Origin: Gemmatimonadota bacterium | GTDB taxonomy: Bacteria > Gemmatimonadota > Gemmatimonadetes > Gemmatimonadales > Gemmatimonadaceae | Length of the DNA: 64,000 nt | Reading direction: 5' to 3' | Assembly: GCA_040389905.1 (NCBI GenBank) | Contig: JAZJZK010000007.1 | Coordinates: forward strand, 191,492-255,491 | Shown here: positions 24,181-38,537 of the stretch, piece by piece | Position numbering within the stretch: the first letter of the stretch is position 1 | Layout: each line of letters begins with the position of its first letter | Program-made: the position numbers and the translations under genes | The notes under the pieces: generated by a model | The model's input: the letters and a program-made list of their open reading frames with translations, nothing else | Told to the model about the DNA's origin: nothing | Database searches by the model: none

Positions 24181-25113
24181 ATGCTGAAAGTCGGTCTGCT
24201 CGTCGGGCGCGAATGGTCCTTTCCCCCGGCATTCATTGATGAAGTCGCGCGTCGCAATGAGGGAGTCGAGGTCGAGTTCATCAAGCTCGGCGGCACGTCG
24301 ATGGACGAGCCGGTACCGTACTCGGTGATCGTCGACCGCATCTCGCACGAGATCGGCTACTACCGCACGTACCTCAAGCACGCCGTGCTTCAGGGTGTCA
24401 CGGTGGTGAATAACCCCTTCATGTGGTCGGCCGACGACAAGCTCTTCGACGCGTCGCTGGCCACGAAGCTCGGCGTTGCGAGCCCGAAGACGATCGCGCT
24501 GCCGAACAAGGAGTACATCCCTGGCATCAAGCACGATGAGAGTCTGCGGAACCTCCAGTACCCGCTCGACTGGCAGGCCATCGTGGACCACATCGGCATG
24601 CCGTGCATCCTGAAGGACGCGCATGGCGGCGGGTGGCGCGATGTCTATGTCTGCAAGACAATGGACGAGCTGATCGCGGCGTACAATGATTCGGGGCTGC
24701 TCACGATGATCATTCAGGAATTCATCGAGTGGGACCAGTTCATTCGATGCATGTCGCTCGGCCAGCGCGAAGTGCTGTGCATGAAGTACGATCCGAAGAA
24801 CCGCTGCTATGTGGTCGAGGAAGGACATCTGAGTCCGGAGCTCGATGCACGGATCAAGAAGGACAGCCTCACGCTCATGCGTGCGCTTGGCTACGACATG
24901 TGCTCGCTCGAGTTCGCGGTTCGCGATGGCATTCCCTACGCCATCGACTTCATGAACCCCGCGCCGGACATGGACATCAATTCACTCACGCCGCATTACT
25001 TCGATTGGGTGCTGAAGGGAATGGCGGACCTCGTGATCCGGCTGGCGAAGGAGAACAAGGCGCAGCGCGATGCGAGCAAGGGTGAGTTTCTGCTCGGCCG
25101 GCGAGAGGGCTGA
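24181..25113 (+). CDS. ATP-grasp amidoligase (RimK/glutathione-synthetase-like)
   Basis: VVNNPF, DDK, PCILK..HGGGW, IIQEFI, EFAVRDG.PYAIDFMNP. Confidence 0.85.
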   Translation: MLKVGLLVGREWSFPPAFIDEVARRNEGVEVEFIKLGGTSMDEPVPYSVIVDRISHEIGYYRTYLKHAVLQGVTVVNNPFMWSADDKLFDASLATKLGVASPKTIALPNKEYIPGIKHDESLRNLQYPLDWQAIVDHIGMPCILKDAHGGGWRDVYVCKTMDELIAAYNDSGLLTMIIQEFIEWDQFIRCMSLGQREVLCMKYDPKNRCYVVEEGHLSPELDARIKKDSLTLMRALGYDMCSLEFAVRDGIPYAIDFMNPAPDMDINSLTPHYFDWVLKGMADLVIRLAKENKAQRDASKGEFLLGRREG

Positions 25114-26462
25114 TGCTCCGAGACGGCGTCGACCTGTACCACACACTGCTCACCGACGACATCGGCGGTGAGACGCAGCGGCAGCTCGACCAACAGCTGC
25201 GTGACAGAGGATTGTTCTTCGGCGACCGCGCCCTGTGCACCGTGCTGCGTCCGCGATTCCTCTCGGCTGCGCAATACAAGTTCCTCCAGAAGCGCGGCGC
25301 GGTGGTGTTGCGTGCCTTTCGCAAGGCGCACCGCGCCGCGCTCACCGATGCCGCCGTGCTGGAGCAGTTCGGCATGCTCGATTGGGAGCGCTCGCTCGTG
25401 CACGTGCCAACCGGCTTCCGGGACTCGAGCCCCGTGTCGCGGCTGGACGCGTTCTTCGTCACGGACGCTGGCGGGATGCGCTTTACAGAGTACAACGCCG
25501 AGACGCCGGCGGGTGGTGGGTACAACGATGTTCTGACGGAAGTCTTTTACGGGCTTCCGATCATGCGCGCCTTCCTTCGCACGTGGGACGTTCGCCCACT
25601 GCCCGCTCGGCACAACGTGCTGCATGCGCTGCTCGATGCGTTCGAACAGTGGTCAGGCCGGCGCGAGAAGCCGCGCGTGACGATCGTCGATTGGGCCGAT
25701 GTCCCGACGCAGAGCGAGTTCCTGCTGTTCCAGGACTACTTCATCCGCCAGGGCATTCCCTGCGACATCATCGATCCCGCGGAGGTGACGTACGCCAACG
25801 GTGTACTCTCCGGGCCGCATGGAACGATCGAGTTGATCTACAAGCGTGTGTTGCTGCACGAACTCGTGGAGCGCGGTGGCCTCGATCATCCGATTCTGCG
25901 CGCGTTCCGTGACGGCAAGGTGTGCATGGTGAATCCGCCGGCGTGCAAGATCCTGCACAAGAAGTCGAGTCTCGCGGTGCTGCATGACGAGGCCAACGCA
26001 TATCTCTTCGACGCGGAGGAGCGTGAGGCGATCGATCTCTCCATTCCGTGGACTCGCGTTGTGCGTGAACGGAAGACGACGCATTCCGGCGCGATCGTGG
26101 ATTTGCTGCCGTTCATGGCCGAGCATCGCGAGCAACTCGTGCTCAAGCCGAACGATGATTACGGTGGGAAGGGAATCGTGCTCGGCTGGGAGGTCGACGA
26201 CGCCGGTTGGGCGTCGGCGATCGCGACGGCACTCCGCGAGCCGTACATCGTGCAGCAACGGATCGAGCTGCCCAAGGAAGACTATCCGAGTTTCGTCGAC
26301 GACAAGGTCATGCTGATCGAACGGATGGTGGACACAGCGCCGTATGTCGCGTACGGTGATCATGTGGATGGCGTCCTGTCGCGACTTGGTACAGCGTCGC
26401 TACTCAACGTCACGGCCGGCGGCGGGAGTCAAACGCCGACGTTCATCGCAGAAAAGAGATGA
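25113..26462 (+). CDS. Circularly permuted ATP-grasp ligase
   Basis: RLDAF, EYNAETPAG, LVLKP.DDYGGKGIVLG, YIVQ, NVTAGG; TGATG coupling. Confidence 0.82.
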   Translation: MLRDGVDLYHTLLTDDIGGETQRQLDQQLRDRGLFFGDRALCTVLRPRFLSAAQYKFLQKRGAVVLRAFRKAHRAALTDAAVLEQFGMLDWERSLVHVPTGFRDSSPVSRLDAFFVTDAGGMRFTEYNAETPAGGGYNDVLTEVFYGLPIMRAFLRTWDVRPLPARHNVLHALLDAFEQWSGRREKPRVTIVDWADVPTQSEFLLFQDYFIRQGIPCDIIDPAEVTYANGVLSGPHGTIELIYKRVLLHELVERGGLDHPILRAFRDGKVCMVNPPACKILHKKSSLAVLHDEANAYLFDAEEREAIDLSIPWTRVVRERKTTHSGAIVDLLPFMAEHREQLVLKPNDDYGGKGIVLGWEVDDAGWASAIATALREPYIVQQRIELPKEDYPSFVDDKVMLIERMVDTAPYVAYGDHVDGVLSRLGTASLLNVTAGGGSQTPTFIAEKR

Positions 26463-26507
26463 ACCGGATCGCCTGATCGCGCCGGGCCGCTTTGCAAGAG
26501 ATCGAGG

Positions 26508-26730
26508 AACGGATTTCGCGGATTGTCACGGAAACAGCACGGATTTGAGCAGCGCGCGGGAAGAGTTCTTGCGACCGGCCCAGGATTGTCACCCCGAGGG
26601 AGCGCAGCGAGTCGAGGGATCTGTTCCTCCGTAGTATCCGGTAGTTTCCGTGTAAATCCGTCAAATGTAGAATTTTGTCAGTTGCAGTTCCGCCGTTGCA
26701 GTTCCGCTGTTGCCGCCGCAATCCGTGAAC
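26508..26730. repeat. Palindromic element with ACGGAT/ATCCGT arms enclosing a REP-like unit (26586-26623), plus TTGCAGTTCCGC duplication
   Basis: ACGGATTT, CACGGAAA, CACGGATTT versus TTTCCGTG, AAATCCGT, AATCCGTG. Confidence 0.75.
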
Positions 26731-26753
26731 ATCGTTAAATCCAGGATGCCAAC

Positions 26754-27959
26754 ATGAAGGCCCCATCTCTTACACTCGGCATCGAAGAAGAATATCAAAT
26801 CATCGATCCGGAAACTCGCGAGCTGAAGTCGTACATCACCGAGATCCTTTCCGGTGATTCGATGATTCTCGACGAGGTGAAGCCGGAGCTTCACCAATCG
26901 ATGGTCGAGATCGGGAGCAAGGTCTGCAAGACGCCGCAGGACGTGCGCGAGGAACTCGTGCGTCTGCGCGGCCTCGTCATGGATCTCGCTGGAAAGAACG
27001 GGCTCGTCATTGCGGCCGCGGGGACTCACCCGTTCTCACTGTGGACGAAGCAGGAGATCACGCCGCTCGAGCGATACGCTGGGGTGAAGCAGGATCTCCA
27101 GGATCTCGCACAACAGCTTCTCATCTTCGGCACACACATCCACGTCGGTATCGAAGACCGCGACTTCCTCATCGAAGCGATGAACGTGTCGCGATACTTA
27201 CTTCCGCATGTGCTCGCGCTGTCCACGAGCTCTCCCTTCTGGCAGGGTCGCCGAACCGGGCTGAAGTCCTATCGCAGCATCGTGTTCCGGAATTTTCCGC
27301 GCACCGGCGTGCCCCCGATCCTCCGCTCGTACGCCGAGTATGAGGAGCTGCTCGATACACTCGTGGGCACGGGATGTATTCCGAATGGATCGAAGATCTG
27401 GTGGGACGCTCGTCCGCATCATGCCTACCCGACGCTCGAATTCCGCGTCTGCGATGTCTGCACGCGTGTGGACGAGGCCGTGTGTCTCGCCGCGATCTTG
27501 CAGGCGATCGTGGCAAAGATCTGGAAGCTCCGCCGCGACAACCTGACCTTCCGGTTGTACCCGCAGGCGTTGATCGACGAGAACAAATGGCGCGCCGTGC
27601 GCTTTGGCCTGGACGGAAAGATGATAGATTTCGGACGTGAACAGGAAGCGCCCGCACGCGAGCTGCTCACGGAAATGCTGGAATGGTTCGTGGACGACGT
27701 CGTCGATGAGTTGGGAAGCCGCAAGGAGGTGGAGTATGCCTTCCACATCATGCGCGGCGGTACGAGCGCAGACCGGCAGCTTGCGATCTATGAAAGCACG
27801 CGCGATCTGCGGGCCGTCGTCGATCGGGTCGTGTCGGAGACGGCGGAAGGAGTACGGCCGGAAATTGCGCAGGTATTTGCCGCCCGCGTTGCCGACGGCG
27901 CGCCCCATCGCGCCACGCTCAGTGGCGAGATGGCACCAGATACCTTGGCTGTGTCGTAA
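26754..27959 (+). CDS. Carboxylate-amine ligase, glutamate-cysteine ligase family 2 (YbdK-like)
   Basis: TLGIEEEYQ, GTHP, FGTHIHVG, SSPFW, WWDARP, TLEFRVCD. Confidence 0.92.
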   Translation: MKAPSLTLGIEEEYQIIDPETRELKSYITEILSGDSMILDEVKPELHQSMVEIGSKVCKTPQDVREELVRLRGLVMDLAGKNGLVIAAAGTHPFSLWTKQEITPLERYAGVKQDLQDLAQQLLIFGTHIHVGIEDRDFLIEAMNVSRYLLPHVLALSTSSPFWQGRRTGLKSYRSIVFRNFPRTGVPPILRSYAEYEELLDTLVGTGCIPNGSKIWWDARPHHAYPTLEFRVCDVCTRVDEAVCLAAILQAIVAKIWKLRRDNLTFRLYPQALIDENKWRAVRFGLDGKMIDFGREQEAPARELLTEMLEWFVDDVVDELGSRKEVEYAFHIMRGGTSADRQLAIYESTRDLRAVVDRVVSETAEGVRPEIAQVFAARVADGAPHRATLSGEMAPDTLAVS

Positions 27960-27989
27960 AGAGGTTGGCCCAGCAATCGCTCTCTGCAC

Positions 27990-28161
27990 AGCGGAAACGG
28001 CAACAGCAGTCAACCACAGAGGACACAGAGAACACAGAGGACGGCACGAGTCCTTCTCGACATTGATGCTGTGTTTTGTCCGCGCCACGACCTGCCCGTT
28101 GTCCTCCGTGTCCTCCGTGTCCTCCGTGGTTAATTTGTTTGTTGTTACTGCACCTTCCGCT
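27990..28161. repeat. Palindromic element with tandem 9-mer inverted arms
   Basis: AACCACAGAGGACACAGAGAACACAGAGGAC ... GTCCTCCGTGTCCTCCGTGTCCTCCGTGGTT; outer AGCGGAA/TTCCGCT. Confidence 0.85.
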
Positions 28162-28175
28162 TTCACAGAAATACA

Positions 28176-28955
28176 GTGGCATCACAGCGAACCCGCCGGC
28201 CAGTCGTCGGCATCCCGACTCAAACCCTTCAGAGCCTCGGCGGCGTCTCAAGCGAGATTCCGGCCTCGTGGGTGATGAGCCAGCGGTACATCCTCACGCT
28301 CACCGCGGCGGGGGCCATTCCGTGGATGATCCCGCTCGTCGACGACGATACGCTGCACGGCGTCTACGAAGAACTGGATGCGGTGTTCCTGCCCGGTGGA
28401 GCGGACATCGATCCGTTCACGTACGGCGCGGCACCGCATCCGTTGTGCGACAAGACCGACCGAGAGCGCGACCGTGTGGAAGTCGCGTTGGCCAAATGGG
28501 CGCTCGAGGAAGACAAGCCCGTACTCGGCGTCTGTCGCGGCATGCAGCTCATCAACGTGGCGGCCGGTGGCACGCTGTATCAGGATCTCGCCGAGGAGCT
28601 GCCGGGCGCGATCAAGCACGATTACTTCCCCTTCAGCGGCCAGCACTTTTCGCGCGACTATCTGGCACATGAGGTTGATGTGACGGCGGGATCGCGACTC
28701 GCCGAGCTCGTTGGAGCCGGGCCGCTCCGCGTGAACAGCATGCATCATCAGGGCATTCGCGAGCTGGGTGTCGGCCTCGTGGCAACGGCGGAAGCACCGG
28801 ACGGACTCATCGAGGCAATCGAAGGAATCGACGACAGCTATCTGGTCGCCGTGCAGTGGCATCCGGAGGCGTTGACCGACAACGACGAACGGACGCGCAA
28901 GCTCTTCACCGATTTCATCGACGCCGGCGCTGACTGGAGCCGCGGGCACGCGTGA
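28176..28955 (+). CDS. Gamma-glutamyl-gamma-aminobutyrate hydrolase family (peptidase C26, PuuD-like)
   Basis: LPGGADIDP, GVCRGMQ (catalytic Cys), VNSMHHQ, VQWHPE. Confidence 0.9.
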   Translation: MASQRTRRPVVGIPTQTLQSLGGVSSEIPASWVMSQRYILTLTAAGAIPWMIPLVDDDTLHGVYEELDAVFLPGGADIDPFTYGAAPHPLCDKTDRERDRVEVALAKWALEEDKPVLGVCRGMQLINVAAGGTLYQDLAEELPGAIKHDYFPFSGQHFSRDYLAHEVDVTAGSRLAELVGAGPLRVNSMHHQGIRELGVGLVATAEAPDGLIEAIEGIDDSYLVAVQWHPEALTDNDERTRKLFTDFIDAGADWSRGHA

Positions 28956-33196: not shown

Positions 33197-34201
33197 GTGA
33201 TATCCAGCATGGAATCAACCACGCGAGTTGTCGTACGCGCCGCGCTCTACTACGCGGTGCTCATCGGCCTCGGTGTCGGGGTATGGCAACTGCTCCCGCA
33301 CGGCGGTGCGATGGCACCGGCGTCGCTCGACGCGCTGTTCGGCGTTGGGCCCGTGAACAGCACAAAGGAACTCCCCGGCGGATCGCTCGACGAAGTCACG
33401 TTGGCCATCTCTGTCGCCGTTGCAATGCTCGCGTCGGTATTGCTCGCGCTGCCGGTCGCGTGGGTCTATCTCCTGACGCGCTCGAAGCGCGGCTATCAAC
33501 AGTCCGTCGTCCAGCTGCTGATCATTCTCCCCCTCGTCGTTTCCGGAATCGTCCTGCTTGTCAAGTACAGCGTGGCACTCGCCTTCAGTCTCGCCGGTAT
33601 TGTCGCGGCGGTGCGATTTCGCAATACGCTCGATGACAGCAAGGACGCCGTGTACGTCTTTCTTGCGACCGCCGTCGGCCTCGCGTCGGCGGTGAATCTT
33701 CCAGTCGCTCTCGTCATTTCGATCGGCTTCAACGCGACCGTGCTCGTCCTCTGGTACACCGACTTCGGCAATGCCCCGGTCGAATTGGATGGCCGCATTG
33801 CGGAAAAGCGCCTCCGTCGAGCCAAGCAGCTGGCGCGCACCGGAACCTTCGTCGCTCGTATCGATGACGAAGTGTTCAAGAACATGACCCGCGACCAGCT
33901 CGAAGGCGTTGCGGAACGTGCGTGGAAACGCGCACACACCAACGATGATGACGCGCCGTCGTCGGAGAACGAGACACGCATTCGTCTGCGCACGGCGGAC
34001 GCGGAGGCGCTGCGCCGCATCATCGAACCCAAGCTGCAGGATTACACGAGACAGTGGCGCGCGGGGCCCACGACCACCGATGGCGGCGTGGAGACAATCG
34101 AGTACTACGTCCAACTGCGGAAGCGAACGCCCGCTGACGAACTGTTGTCGCTCGTTCGGGCCGCCGGCTCGTCGCAGATCATCGACTCGGAGGTGACCTG
34201 A
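33197..34201 (+). CDS. DUF4956 family membrane protein
   Basis: Multiple TMs; AFSLAGIVAAVRFRNTL.D.KDA.YVF...GLA signature. Confidence 0.8.
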   Translation: MISSMESTTRVVVRAALYYAVLIGLGVGVWQLLPHGGAMAPASLDALFGVGPVNSTKELPGGSLDEVTLAISVAVAMLASVLLALPVAWVYLLTRSKRGYQQSVVQLLIILPLVVSGIVLLVKYSVALAFSLAGIVAAVRFRNTLDDSKDAVYVFLATAVGLASAVNLPVALVISIGFNATVLVLWYTDFGNAPVELDGRIAEKRLRRAKQLARTGTFVARIDDEVFKNMTRDQLEGVAERAWKRAHTNDDDAPSSENETRIRLRTADAEALRRIIEPKLQDYTRQWRAGPTTTDGGVETIEYYVQLRKRTPADELLSLVRAAGSSQIIDSEVT

Positions 34202-35247
34202 TGAGGTACCACACCGCCGCACTGCTTCTGCTGTTGTTGTCGGCCCCAGGCGGCGCGCAAACAGCTCCGCCAATCGACACCACCGTGCCGCGGCTGTTCC
34301 GGAGCGAAGCGCCGCTCGCCATCACGCTCACCGCCAACATGAAGCAGTTGCGGGACGACCGCTCCGAGACCTCCCCATACCGGCCTGCGACAATCACGTA
34401 TATCGGCGCGGATGCGAAGCCCGTCACCGTGCCGCTCAAGGTGAAGACGCACGGCATCTGGCGGTTGAAGCACTGCGAGTTCCCGCCCCTCCGCTTCAAT
34501 TTTGCGAACAAGCAGGTGAAAGGCACGCTGTTCCACGACCTCGAGAAGCCAAAGGTCGTCAGCACCTGCAAGAACACCGATCAGCACGAGCAACTGGTGC
34601 TCAGAGAGATGCAGCTCTATCGCATCTACCGCACGCTGACGCCGGCGAGCCATCGCGTTCGCACGCTTCGGATTTCCTACGCCGACAGCGCGACCGGAAA
34701 AGTCGAAGCGACCCGCTACGGCTTCCTCTTCGAGGACCCCGACAAGGTCGCCGAGCGGTTGGGTGGCAAGATGAGCAAGGTGAAGGGCGCGAGCGCCTCG
34801 GACGTCGAGCCGGAACTGTATTCGCTCGTGTTCGCGTTCGAGTACTTCATCTCCAATCTGGATTTCTCGTTCAATGGGCTGCACAACGGGCAACTCGTCG
34901 TGAAACCCGACGCGTCGCCGCTGCTGCCGGTGCCGTACGACTTCGACTTCAGCGGTGCCGTCAACGCGCCATATGCCACGGTCGATGCCAGGCTCGGGAC
35001 CAAGAAGGTGCGAGAGCGATTGTTTCGGGGATACTGCGAACTCAAGGATGACTTTCCGGCGGCATTCCAGAAACTTCGCGACCGCAAGGATGCGATCTAC
35101 GCGCTCTATCGCGACGACGTCGGCAAATTGCTCGATCCGGGCACCGTGCGCGAGACACTCGAGTACTACGACGAGTTCTACGATCGCATCAAGACCGACA
35201 CGGATGCGGAGCGGAACGTGTGGTCTACCTGTGTGGGGCGGCGCTGA
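34201..35247 (+). CDS. Secreted CotH-like atypical kinase-fold protein
   Basis: Signal peptide; KTHG..R, CEFPPL, KVV, LRE..LYRIY, FLFED, ISNLDFS...HN, PVPYDFD; TGATG coupling. Confidence 0.6.
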   Translation: MRYHTAALLLLLLSAPGGAQTAPPIDTTVPRLFRSEAPLAITLTANMKQLRDDRSETSPYRPATITYIGADAKPVTVPLKVKTHGIWRLKHCEFPPLRFNFANKQVKGTLFHDLEKPKVVSTCKNTDQHEQLVLREMQLYRIYRTLTPASHRVRTLRISYADSATGKVEATRYGFLFEDPDKVAERLGGKMSKVKGASASDVEPELYSLVFAFEYFISNLDFSFNGLHNGQLVVKPDASPLLPVPYDFDFSGAVNAPYATVDARLGTKKVRERLFRGYCELKDDFPAAFQKLRDRKDAIYALYRDDVGKLLDPGTVRETLEYYDEFYDRIKTDTDAERNVWSTCVGRR

Positions 35248-37964
35248 CGAGCGCACCGAAGGACGCCGCGACTCCACGCATTGCCGTCCGGTACGAGCTC
35301 CGCTCGGCCGGCCAACTCGACGCCCTCGTGGCGGCGGAGTTGCCGGCCGGTGCGCGCGCCACGGCCGCGCGACGGACGATGCACCGAGACTTCTACATCG
35401 ACACGAAGGACGAAACGCTTCGGCGGCGCGGCGTCACCTGTCGCTTGCGGTTGGGGACGGACGATGCGCATCGCTTGTCACTCCGGATCGACGGCGCCGC
35501 CGGCGAGCGGCCGACGCGAGTGGACGACCGCGTGCGCTCCGCCACGCTCCGCGAGGCACTCGCTGAAAACACATCCGCGGGGCGACGGATCCGCGCGCTG
35601 ATCGATCCGGATGCTCTTATCGTCGTTCATGATCTCGAGGTCGAGCGATGGACGCGATTTGCATTTCCCGGCCTGCTGCGCGGTCCGCGGGTGGAATTGC
35701 ATTTCGATGCGATCACCATCCGGCAGCGAGACAGCGCGCGAACGTTCTACCAGTTGTGCGGACATCAGCGCCGTGGAGCCGGCACCGAGCTGGAGTCCAT
35801 TGCGTCGCTCTTCGAGCGACAATTCGCCGTGCGACCGGTGCCCGGAGACTTTCGCGAGCTCGTCGAGCTGTTGGCGCGATGGAAGCGCGACGGATCGGCG
35901 GCGGTGCAGCTGGAAGATACGGATGATCTCCGGTCGCACGATGGAGCACTCGGCGGATCGATTCTGCTGAACCCGGAACTCAGCCTCGTCGCCTTTCAGT
36001 GGCGCGTGCTGGCGATGGCGCAATATGACGTGACGCCGCTCCGTGAGCGCTTGAGATTCCTGGGCATCGTCACGAACAACATCGACGAACTCTACATGGT
36101 GCGCATGCCGGCACTCACCAGTGAATGGCGCGCGCGTGTTACCGAAGAGGTGGAGCGACTGTTGTCGGCCCAATCCGCGTGCGCTGCCGACTGCCTGCGT
36201 GAGGCAGAACGCCTGGGCGTGCACATCGTGAAGTGGGATGCGCTGACTGCTGCGGAGCGAGACGCGCTCAGCGACCTGTGTCGCGACGACATTCATCCGG
36301 GGCTCACGCCACTTGCCGTCACGCTGAGTCCCGGTCATCCGCTCCCACATCTCGCGCACCTCGGCCTCTCGCTTGCCGTTGTCTTTCGCCGCGACGAAGG
36401 CGGTCGGCCACACCTGGCCGAGTTCGAACTCCCATCGGATGTCGCACGACTCCTGCCGGTTCCCGGTCGCGCGTCCGACGTCATCGCCATTGAGGACGTG
36501 CTGCGCGCCAACGTGCACCTGCTGCACCCGAACGCGTACGTCGAAGGCGCATATCTCTTTCGTGTCACCCGCCGAGGCGACCTCGCGCTCGACGAGGAAG
36601 GGGCGGAGGATCTCCTCGTCGCGGTAGAGACGGCAACGGAGCGCCGTCCATACAATCCCGCCATTCGCGTGGAGGTCGAGCGGACGACGCCGTCTCTCGT
36701 GCGGGAGTTGATCCTCGAGAGTCTCCGGCGCGACGCGGTGTCGCAGGGGATGCTGCCCTGCGTCAACGATGTCCAGGTGGTCGACGGTCTTCTCGATCTC
36801 CGCTGCCTCGCCGAACTGCCGCTCCCCGCGCGCAGCGATCTGGAGTATCCACCGCTCGTGGGACGATCTCCGGTGGATGCACAGCGCTCGATGTTCGATG
36901 TTGTGCGCGGCGGTGACCTGCTCGTCCAACACCCATTCGACGCGTTCGATGCGACCGTTGTTCGTTTCGTTCGCGAGGCAGCCGACGATTCCGCGGTCAC
37001 GGCGATCAAGATCACACTGTATCGCGTCGGTGATCCCTCGCCGATCGTGGGTGCGTTGCTCGACGCGGCCAAGGCGGGGAAGCGCGTCGTTGCCTTTGTC
37101 GAGCTCAAGGCCCGTTTCGACGAAGAGCACAATGTCGCGTGGGCACGCGCCCTCGAACGCGCCGGCGGCAATGTTGTCTACGGCCTCGTTGGACTGAAGA
37201 CGCACGCGAAGGTCGCCCTGGTCGTCCGCAGGGAAGGGGAGAAGCTCCAGCGATACGTGCACGTCGGCACGGGGAACTACAACGCGCGCGCCGGCCGTCA
37301 GTACACCGACCTCAGTCTTTTCTCCGCACGCGATGACATCACGAGTGATATTGCGGACCTGTTCAACGAGTTGACCGGATCGTCTCGCGCGCCGAAAGGA
37401 CTCGCGCATGGCGCACTCGTGGCGCCGCATCAATTGCTGCCGGCGATGCTGGCGCTGATCGAACGGGAAACCGCGCACGCTCGGGCATCACGTTCCGCGT
37501 CGATTGCGATCAAGGTGAACGGCCTCACCGATCCCGAGATCATCGAGGCGCTCTATGAGGCGTCCGCCGCGGGCGTCCGCATCGACATGGTCGTGCGGGG
37601 CATCTGCACGCTGCGGCCGGGCCTCGAGCCGAGGTCCGCCAACATTCGCGTGGTGTCCGTGGTCGGACGCTTCCTCGAACATTCGCGCATCTACCGCTTC
37701 GCGAATGGTGGTGATCCGACGTACCTGATTGGCTCCGCGGATCTCCGTCCTCGGAACTTGCGCCGCCGCGTCGAGCTCCTCGTGCCGATCGCGAACGCGC
37801 GGCACCGGCAGCAATTGGACCGCATCCTGGATCTCTACCTCAACGACGCGACGGCATGGGAGATGGACGGGAACGGCAACTACCGGCAGCGAGTTGCCGG
37901 CGGCCCGGGGGCGCAGGAGATTCTGGCTCGGAGCGCTGACACCATTCTCGAGGGCGCGTCGTAA
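35220..37964 (+). CDS. ppk1: Polyphosphate kinase 1 with N-terminal CYTH-like domain (start uncertain)
   Basis: AIKITLYR, ELKARFDE, KTHAK (phospho-His), GTGNYN, YTD, GRFLEHSR, RNLRRRVE; N-terminal DFYIDT.D..LRRRG..CRLR. Confidence 0.88.
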   Translation: MVYLCGAALTSAPKDAATPRIAVRYELRSAGQLDALVAAELPAGARATAARRTMHRDFYIDTKDETLRRRGVTCRLRLGTDDAHRLSLRIDGAAGERPTRVDDRVRSATLREALAENTSAGRRIRALIDPDALIVVHDLEVERWTRFAFPGLLRGPRVELHFDAITIRQRDSARTFYQLCGHQRRGAGTELESIASLFERQFAVRPVPGDFRELVELLARWKRDGSAAVQLEDTDDLRSHDGALGGSILLNPELSLVAFQWRVLAMAQYDVTPLRERLRFLGIVTNNIDELYMVRMPALTSEWRARVTEEVERLLSAQSACAADCLREAERLGVHIVKWDALTAAERDALSDLCRDDIHPGLTPLAVTLSPGHPLPHLAHLGLSLAVVFRRDEGGRPHLAEFELPSDVARLLPVPGRASDVIAIEDVLRANVHLLHPNAYVEGAYLFRVTRRGDLALDEEGAEDLLVAVETATERRPYNPAIRVEVERTTPSLVRELILESLRRDAVSQGMLPCVNDVQVVDGLLDLRCLAELPLPARSDLEYPPLVGRSPVDAQRSMFDVVRGGDLLVQHPFDAFDATVVRFVREAADDSAVTAIKITLYRVGDPSPIVGALLDAAKAGKRVVAFVELKARFDEEHNVAWARALERAGGNVVYGLVGLKTHAKVALVVRREGEKLQRYVHVGTGNYNARAGRQYTDLSLFSARDDITSDIADLFNELTGSSRAPKGLAHGALVAPHQLLPAMLALIERETAHARASRSASIAIKVNGLTDPEIIEALYEASAAGVRIDMVVRGICTLRPGLEPRSANIRVVSVVGRFLEHSRIYRFANGGDPTYLIGSADLRPRNLRRRVELLVPIANARHRQQLDRILDLYLNDATAWEMDGNGNYRQRVAGGPGAQEILARSADTILEGAS

Positions 37965-38357: not shown

Positions 38358-38537
38358 ACAGAGTCTTCTCGTTCTTACCGCAGAGCGCGCAGAGGAGCAA
38401 AGGGTCGCAGAGGAAACCAGAACGGGCAGGCCATTCGTTTCACTCAGGACCTGCACCTGTTGTCTCGCTTTTCCTCTGCGTGCCTCTGCTCCTCTGCGCC
38501 CTCTGCGGTAAAATGACAACGCCCGTAGAATCAACTC
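38358..38537. repeat. Second copy of the CAGAG palindromic element, without REP inserts
   Basis: ACAGAGTCTTCTCGTTCTTACCGCAGAG identical to 6782-6809; right flank GACAACGCC..ATCAACTC shared. Confidence 0.85.

Follow-up and report, generated by a model that had tools for sequence, protein, structure and literature searches.

Among the accessory genes of Gram-positive pel operons are cotH, a polyphosphate (polyP) polymerase gene (VTC, PF09359) and a DUF4956 gene, which the accessible part of the report describes without assigning them a function (10.1101/768473). The yeast VTC complex, according to the accessible text of a second report, makes polyP from ATP, and its pore carries basic rings at the cytoplasmic mouth (10.1101/2023.01.27.525886). 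We analysed a 64,000-nt stretch of DNA, here called the window, from a Gemmatimonadota bacterium (Gemmatimonadaceae; assembly GCA_040389905.1, contig JAZJZK010000007.1, positions 191,492-255,491; genome G000, completeness 84.6%), which holds three overlapping plus-strand genes: gene 1, encoding a DUF4956 membrane protein of the long type (33197..34201, 334 aa), gene 2, a likely Sec-exported CotH-fold kinase-like protein (34201..35247, 348 aa), and gene 3, a polyphosphate kinase, PPK1, with an N-terminal CYTH/TTM-like domain (35220-37964, 914 aa). As far as the accessible text on the pel-operon set allows comparison, the two share a DUF4956 protein, a polyP polymerase and a CotH-fold kinase encoded contiguously, but here PPK1 replaces VTC, the DUF4956 protein is a longer, separate subtype, the kinase falls outside Pfam CotH and there is no glycan operon nearby. 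PPK1 thus stands where the published gene set has its VTC polymerase, and we judge the PPK1-bearing set to be a variant of a known, uncharacterised module; no paper on this version was found in the literature searched, which omits most subscription papers.

The exchange of polymerases emerges from a sample of 201 genomes of the phylum, in which the kinase was matched in 60 genomes, DUF4956 in 87, the CYTH-like domain in 41, VTC in 14 and PPK1 in 165; genes were taken as neighbours when their listed coordinates lay within 7 kb. At the 96 close-type DUF4956 loci (77 genomes) we found the kinase in 34 cases, CYTH-PPK1 in 33, fusion to PPK1 in 6 and VTC in none, a fused PPK1 or a CYTH-PPK1 thus lying within 7 kb at 39 of them. 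The 15 distant-type loci comprised 13 with VTC, none with CYTH-PPK1 and none with a gene 2-type kinase. Since PPK1 accompanies the close type with no VTC, and VTC the distant type with no CYTH-PPK1, two unrelated polyP polymerases fill the same slot. These locus counts are lower bounds, owing to contig ends, to fusions being counted in fetched loci only and to plain PPK1 neighbours being left uncounted. Of the rows listed we removed 2 for DUF4956 that were second pieces and 3 for CYTH, of which two were likewise second pieces and the third had E 5.5e-4. Close-type DUF4956 is present in 54 of the 60 kinase-bearing genomes, as against 77 of all 201; related genomes are not independent, either in this comparison or in the locus counts. 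One unpublished genome, G182, supplies a single three-part locus, without which the numbers of loci, kinase, CYTH-PPK1 and all three become 95, 33, 32 and 10; another, G157, was counted in the PPK1 tally only.

A physical connection between membrane protein and polymerase is provided by natural fusions. At seven loci (L051-L054, L056, L057, L103) the transmembrane (TM) part of DUF4956 continues in one frame through a linker of 49-58 aa into a whole PPK1, without the ACT-like and CYTH domains (L053:495-3323 is an example); in the 2 fusions scanned with Pfam, both parts are recognized. Since the fusions do without these two domains, the CYTH-like and ACT-like domains may serve as a docking pair where the proteins are separate. 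Together with a contig-truncated eighth they form one clade (support 100), and CHAD, SixA-like, housekeeping ppk1 and Ppx genes adjoin several of them. The direct DUF4956-PPK1 link implied in a preliminary description of the window is thus realized in nature, in seven related loci of one origin. With the division of VTC and PPK1 between DUF4956 subtypes, the fusions firmly tie a dedicated PPK1 to DUF4956; that the two are coupled at the membrane is highly probable.

That the polymerase part of gene 3 (35955..37964, +; N, middle, C1 and C2 domains) is PPK1 is plain from the match of residues 250-893 to TIGR03705 (634.4 bits, cut-off 465.85) and from four PPK1 Pfam domains, all above cut-off. 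Its LKTHAK, HVGTGNYN and RFLEHSR segments align with the KxHAK, HxGTGN and RxLEH motifs of Escherichia coli PPK1 (1xdo/1xdp), all intact, and we take the aligned His motifs to be catalytic. All four domains of the E. coli enzyme can be aligned, but gene 3 differs from it in its N-terminal CYTH-like domain, a shorter N domain, its status as a second paralogue and the tie to a membrane protein. In trees of 66 PPK1 domains, whose root was not tested, 8 housekeeping PPK1s form one clade (SH-aLRT 95.8) with the module PPK1s outside it, and 14 CYTH-PPK1 proteins and 5 CYTH-less ones form another (support 99.1). G000 carries both kinds: a tblastn search returns a single copy each of genes 1 and 2 but two of PPK1, the housekeeping ppk1 being on contig C6 behind genes that we presume to be a DUF47/PiT phosphate-transport pair. 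Because the 5 CYTH-less PPK1s fall in two positions in the tree, the CYTH domain was lost at least two times; L071 and L079 retain the DUF4956-kinase-PPK1 operon without it. Other CYTH-less PPK1s of the module clade (L151-L153) stand alone; in these genomes DUF4956 and the kinase are paired elsewhere.

The preliminary description had the CYTH domain handing polyP to the membrane protein. This domain (35220..35954, +) matches Pfam CYTH weakly in gene 3 (E 2.5e-4, below the Pfam cut-off) and more clearly among its relatives, 38 of 44 homologous domains matching PF01928 at E<=0.1 (best 1.4e-10); PF09359 (VTC) was matched neither by gene 3 nor by any of the 44. Its closest solved relative is the inorganic triphosphatase YgiF of E. 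coli (CYTH-CHAD; 5a60, E 1.3e-5, profile positions 40-202). In the accessible text of a study of the family, active CYTH enzymes are defined by two sets of metal ligands, an ExExK motif and an ExE motif near the C-terminus (PMC8233210); unlike YgiF, gene 3 has neither, reading R-I-A-V-R (20-24) and Q178-L-C180 in their place, and it is joined to PPK1 instead of CHAD. Among the 44 CYTH-like copies a complete ExEx[KR] occurs in none and the C-terminal ExE in 1. Two candidate functions can accordingly be discarded: VTC polymerase, by the resemblance to YgiF and the lack of a PF09359 match, and active triphosphatase, by the loss of the metal ligands. The basic residues of the tunnel persist (R56 and R143 in 44/44, R77 in 42/44, R75 in 38/44), and we infer from these alignments that the domain may be a non-catalytic phosphate-binding tunnel, probably a dispensable accessory. 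Being dispensable (it is missing from L071, L079 and all seven fusions), as well as YgiF-like rather than VTC-like and devoid of its metal ligands, the domain is very unlikely to perform the hand-over, and that part of the description falls away. In a further group, L058:6173-9304 and 29 similar proteins, an extra domain of ~130-150 aa lies between CYTH and PPK1; it has no Pfam match and looks to us like a degenerate Nudix fold. The window's own clade is without it.

Gene 1 belongs to DUF4956 (PF16316; 36.9 bits, cut-off 30.6, E 3.8e-9), as do 100 of the 100 members of the family alignment. Hydropathy and the structural model agree on six predicted TM helices (residues ~7-32, 66-95, 102-124, 126-141, 148-165, 168-187), and the model adds a C-terminal ACT/ferredoxin-like domain (256-334) in an overall MgtC-like layout, with both termini apparently in the cytoplasm; confidence in the monomer is given by a pLDDT of 78.5 and a pTM of 0.49. 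The C-terminal domain scores Z 8-9.7 against ACT-like folds, the MgtC C-domains 7qa5 (Z 9.1) and 2lqj (Z 8.8) being tied with many others. Among the matches listed in this fold search there was no Vtc chain, the rows being filled by the ACT-like domain and the TM part barely probed, and for the TM part the ESM Atlas yielded no informative match. Across 64 DUF4956 rows, R95, K97, R98, R140, R142 and K149 are basic in 53-64, and D147 and D150 acidic in 63 and 64; the conserved basic residues would lie on the cytoplasmic face. Yeast VTC offers a possible functional analogy, within what the accessible account of that complex conveys, in that a polyP polymerase would be attached to a membrane domain whose cytoplasmic face is basic; but the PPK1 fold is unrelated to TTM, DUF4956 has six helices per chain rather than three, no SPX domain was detected in this system and a pore in it would be hypothetical.

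Gene 2 has no Pfam match at E<=1 and no NCBIfam match, and sequence searches of the PDB returned nothing significant; its family is large, with 3029 representatives at E<=0.001. The model built from 144 sequences (pLDDT 94.9) is predicted to have the CotH atypical kinase fold: Foldseek places Bacillus cereus CotH (5jd9) at the top (E 4.4e-9, TM 0.53), and an independent search of 48,161 chains with VIA likewise puts CotH first, at Z 20.2 and an rmsd of 3.2 for 270 aligned residues, ahead of rows at 12.7. Ten residues are invariant in the 144 sequences (G85, R88, C92, C123, E136, E178, R186, D221, N229, D249) and D247 is kept in 143. The catalytic and metal-binding aspartates of B. subtilis CotH are D228 and D251, and activity is lost when either is replaced, according to the accessible text (PMC7821199). 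The motifs of gene 2 were compared to those of CotH by eye: N-x-D, H-N and P-[WY]-D (P-Y-D-F-D in gene 2) agree, also in order, with the Pfam-confirmed CotH of G000. This canonical CotH (G000:C50:35656-37425) has a lipoprotein-like N-terminus. An hhalign comparison of the gene 2 family alignment with a shallow CotH set was not significant. Since only 7 of 132 homologues match PF08757, and these weakly (16.1-23.4 bits, all under the cut-off of 23.8), we regard gene 2 as a CotH-fold family rather than a member of Pfam CotH. Bacillus CotH (5jd9, 5jda) is its best structural match, but gene 2 differs in its 13-15% identity, lack of a PF08757 match, likely signal peptide and four conserved Cys. Export is likely, for 132 of the 144 homologues begin with a hydrophobic extension (such a window lies within the mature part, residues 20-348 in gene 2, in 17), the signal peptide being judged by hydropathy only, and four Cys are near-invariant, each kept in 137-144 of the 144 rows. 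Both the exported location and the kinase fold supposed for this protein are in this way supported. At residue 84 (window 34450-34452), in the T-R-G motif, gene 2 has His where 128 of the 144 sequences have Arg; His is found in 15.

The surroundings of the kinase were surveyed in a second sample of 80 loci, the best 80 of 601, drawn from 11 of 64 genome-collection parts; 66 are classed as Gemmatimonadota by title (one titled only 'bacterium') and 14 come from other phyla. At the 66 Gemmatimonadota loci DUF4956 was present in 31, PPK1 or CYTH in 26 and both in 19; counted in the 26 are three partial PPK1s at the ends of the fetched flanks and two genes in convergent orientation. The 35 closest kinase loci included 27 with 1.2 kb either side, 14 of these with all three parts. 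Homologues and related loci carry mostly Gemmatimonadota titles. Taken with the 201 genomes, and with the several gene orders in which the partners recur, this sample bears out the conservation of the gene set that the preliminary description had assumed; an obligate trio is ruled out, only 11 of the 96 close-type loci holding all three genes. Versions can be combined in one genome: G103 has a classic CotH-VTC-DUF4956-DUF2490 set (L154), a separate DUF4956-kinase pair and a stand-alone PPK1 of the module clade. Three loci titled Gammaproteobacteria/Proteobacteria (L135, L136, L143) encode the kinase, a short DUF4956 consisting of the TM part only and an exported metallophosphoesterase, with a phytase-like propeller in 2 of the 3; no PPK1 was found in their fetched flanks. 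At L140:5114-10049 (titled Bacteroidetes) the genes in line with the kinase encode a 5'-nucleotidase, an alkaline phosphatase and a phytase-like protein.

The periplasm is thought to hold no ATP. The sequence of events that would best account for the gene set is that the second, dedicated PPK1 docks on DUF4956 in the inner membrane and there makes polyP, that DUF4956 may pass the polyP, or a short chain of it, outward, and that the likely exported protein of predicted CotH fold would use it to phosphorylate an envelope target. A CotH-fold partner is present in both versions, Pfam CotH beside VTC and a separate CotH-fold family beside PPK1; as two polymerases share one slot and each DUF4956 subtype has such a partner, the simplest reading is that an enzyme beyond the membrane draws on polyP synthesized at it. 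We hold this to be the best explanation, tentatively. Its steps differ in likelihood: translocation of polyP by DUF4956 is possible, though we would not presume it, and the use of polyP as phosphoryl donor by the gene 2 kinase is doubtful. More doubtful still is the general form, in which DUF4956 would be a bacterial polyP translocase that recruited two unrelated polymerases, VTC-type and PPK1, and the exported CotH-fold enzyme a polyP-dependent kinase of periplasmic or surface targets where ATP is lacking. The earlier idea of a bacterial VTC analogue run by PPK1 finds partial support, in so far as PPK1 occupies the VTC slot and, in relatives, is fused to DUF4956; the hand-over step finds none.

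Several observations weigh against polyP export to an outside kinase, chief among them how loosely the three genes associate, how often phosphatases are partners and the use of ATP by characterised CotH. At the 96 close-type loci only the 11 have all three parts; the kinase without PPK1 occurs at 23, PPK1 without the kinase at 28 and neither at 34. A genome of the same genus (G077) has DUF4956 and kinase, with a single PPK1 match elsewhere whose score is typical of a housekeeping gene; none of the 14 non-Gemmatimonadota kinase loci has PPK1 nearby and 3 have DUF4956, the Bacteroidota kinases having neither in their vicinity. The fusions, forming a single clade, count as one event. The basic cytoplasmic face of DUF4956 is equally expected from the positive-inside rule, and MgtC, whose layout DUF4956 resembles, works by binding a partner protein, according to the accessible text on it (PMC6658541). 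In other lineages phosphatases (metallophosphoesterase, phytase-like, alkaline-phosphatase family) replace or adjoin the kinase, which would fit phosphate scavenging equally well.

Nearly as likely as export is a membrane phosphate hub, in which an MgtC-like DUF4956 would anchor or regulate the second PPK1, polyP would stay in the cytoplasm, and the kinase and phosphatases would be co-regulated partners in scavenging or signalling. The TM bundle with its ACT-like domain suits such a role, as do the alkaline-phosphatase-family gene at 22 of the 66 Gemmatimonadota kinase loci, the CHAD, SixA-like and Ppx genes flanking the fusions, and the metallophosphoesterase, phytase-like and Omp85 genes that stand in for the kinase in many loci; these, or Ser/Thr kinase genes, adjoin DUF4956 and CYTH-PPK1 in other lineages. 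However, the hub gives no account of an exported CotH-fold enzyme beside DUF4956 with VTC and with PPK1 alike, and the link to MgtC is negligible in sequence, PF02308 (MgtC/SapB) matching 1 of 100 DUF4956 members at E 0.066. In a further reading, which is improbable, the kinase uses ATP as CotH does; DUF4956 would then bring this or a different nucleotide into the periplasm, and at the membrane PPK1 would buffer ATP and polyP locally, possibly in reverse. The CotH fold is kept over 270 residues, CotH itself uses ATP in the accessible account (PMC7821199), and the 23 loci with DUF4956 and kinase lack a dedicated PPK1; yet 28 loci pair DUF4956 with PPK1 in the absence of the kinase, and DUF4956 classically goes with a VTC-domain protein, the yeast relative of which synthesizes polyP out of ATP, as far as the text cited above goes. 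We give similarly little weight to a loose operon of three phosphate-related genes, often co-transcribed and belonging to no single pathway, with the kinase a free-standing exported enzyme: 34 of 76 kinase loci are without either partner in the surrounding 7 kb, DUF4956 was not found with the query used in 6 of the 14 non-Gemmatimonadota genomes holding the kinase, and the module-clade PPK1s of L151-L153 stand alone, but against mere assortment speak the fusions, the overlap of stop and start codons and the way the partners stay together in several different orders.

The gene layout read earlier from the window, three overlapping plus-strand open reading frames with TGATG at 34199-34203, was recovered in full, and so were the identities given to the products: DUF4956, a signal-peptide protein with a CotH-matching model, and PPK1 with an N-terminal CYTH-like domain. 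The TGATG forms the stop/start overlap of genes 1 and 2 and is preceded on the same strand by a Shine-Dalgarno-like GGAGGTG (34189-34195); genes 2 and 3 share 28 nt if gene 3 starts at GTG 35220. This start is ambiguous: CTG 35244 (CTGA, 4-nt overlap) is an alternative, and homologues begin near residue 9-17. A promoter/terminator scan gave 1 and 2 sites, no better than in shuffled sequence, and no RNA data set appears among the sequencing runs listed. In G000, at 84.6% completeness, there was no match to VTC (PF09359), no second match to DUF4956 and, with one query, no alkaline-phosphatase-family neighbour gene. Elsewhere in the window, 25113-28955 holds a row of genes for a circularly permuted ATP-grasp protein (weak, below cut-off), a GCS2 glutamate-cysteine-ligase-family protein and a peptidase C26, which to us recalls peptide-ligase gene clusters, and 38375-38511 an intergenic inverted repeat (42-nt arms, 90% complementary, CTCTGCG-like units), possibly a REP-like element.

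The phosphoryl donor of kinases outside the bacterial cytoplasm and the deliberate export of polyP by bacteria are both open questions. The replacement of VTC by PPK1 beside DUF4956, with the single-chain fusions, ties the uncharacterised DUF4956 family to polyP synthesis, and the DUF4956-PPK1 fusion is a single polypeptide suited to direct study, in liposomes, of translocation coupled to synthesis. Should export fail, a class of membrane-anchored PPK1 would still have been defined.

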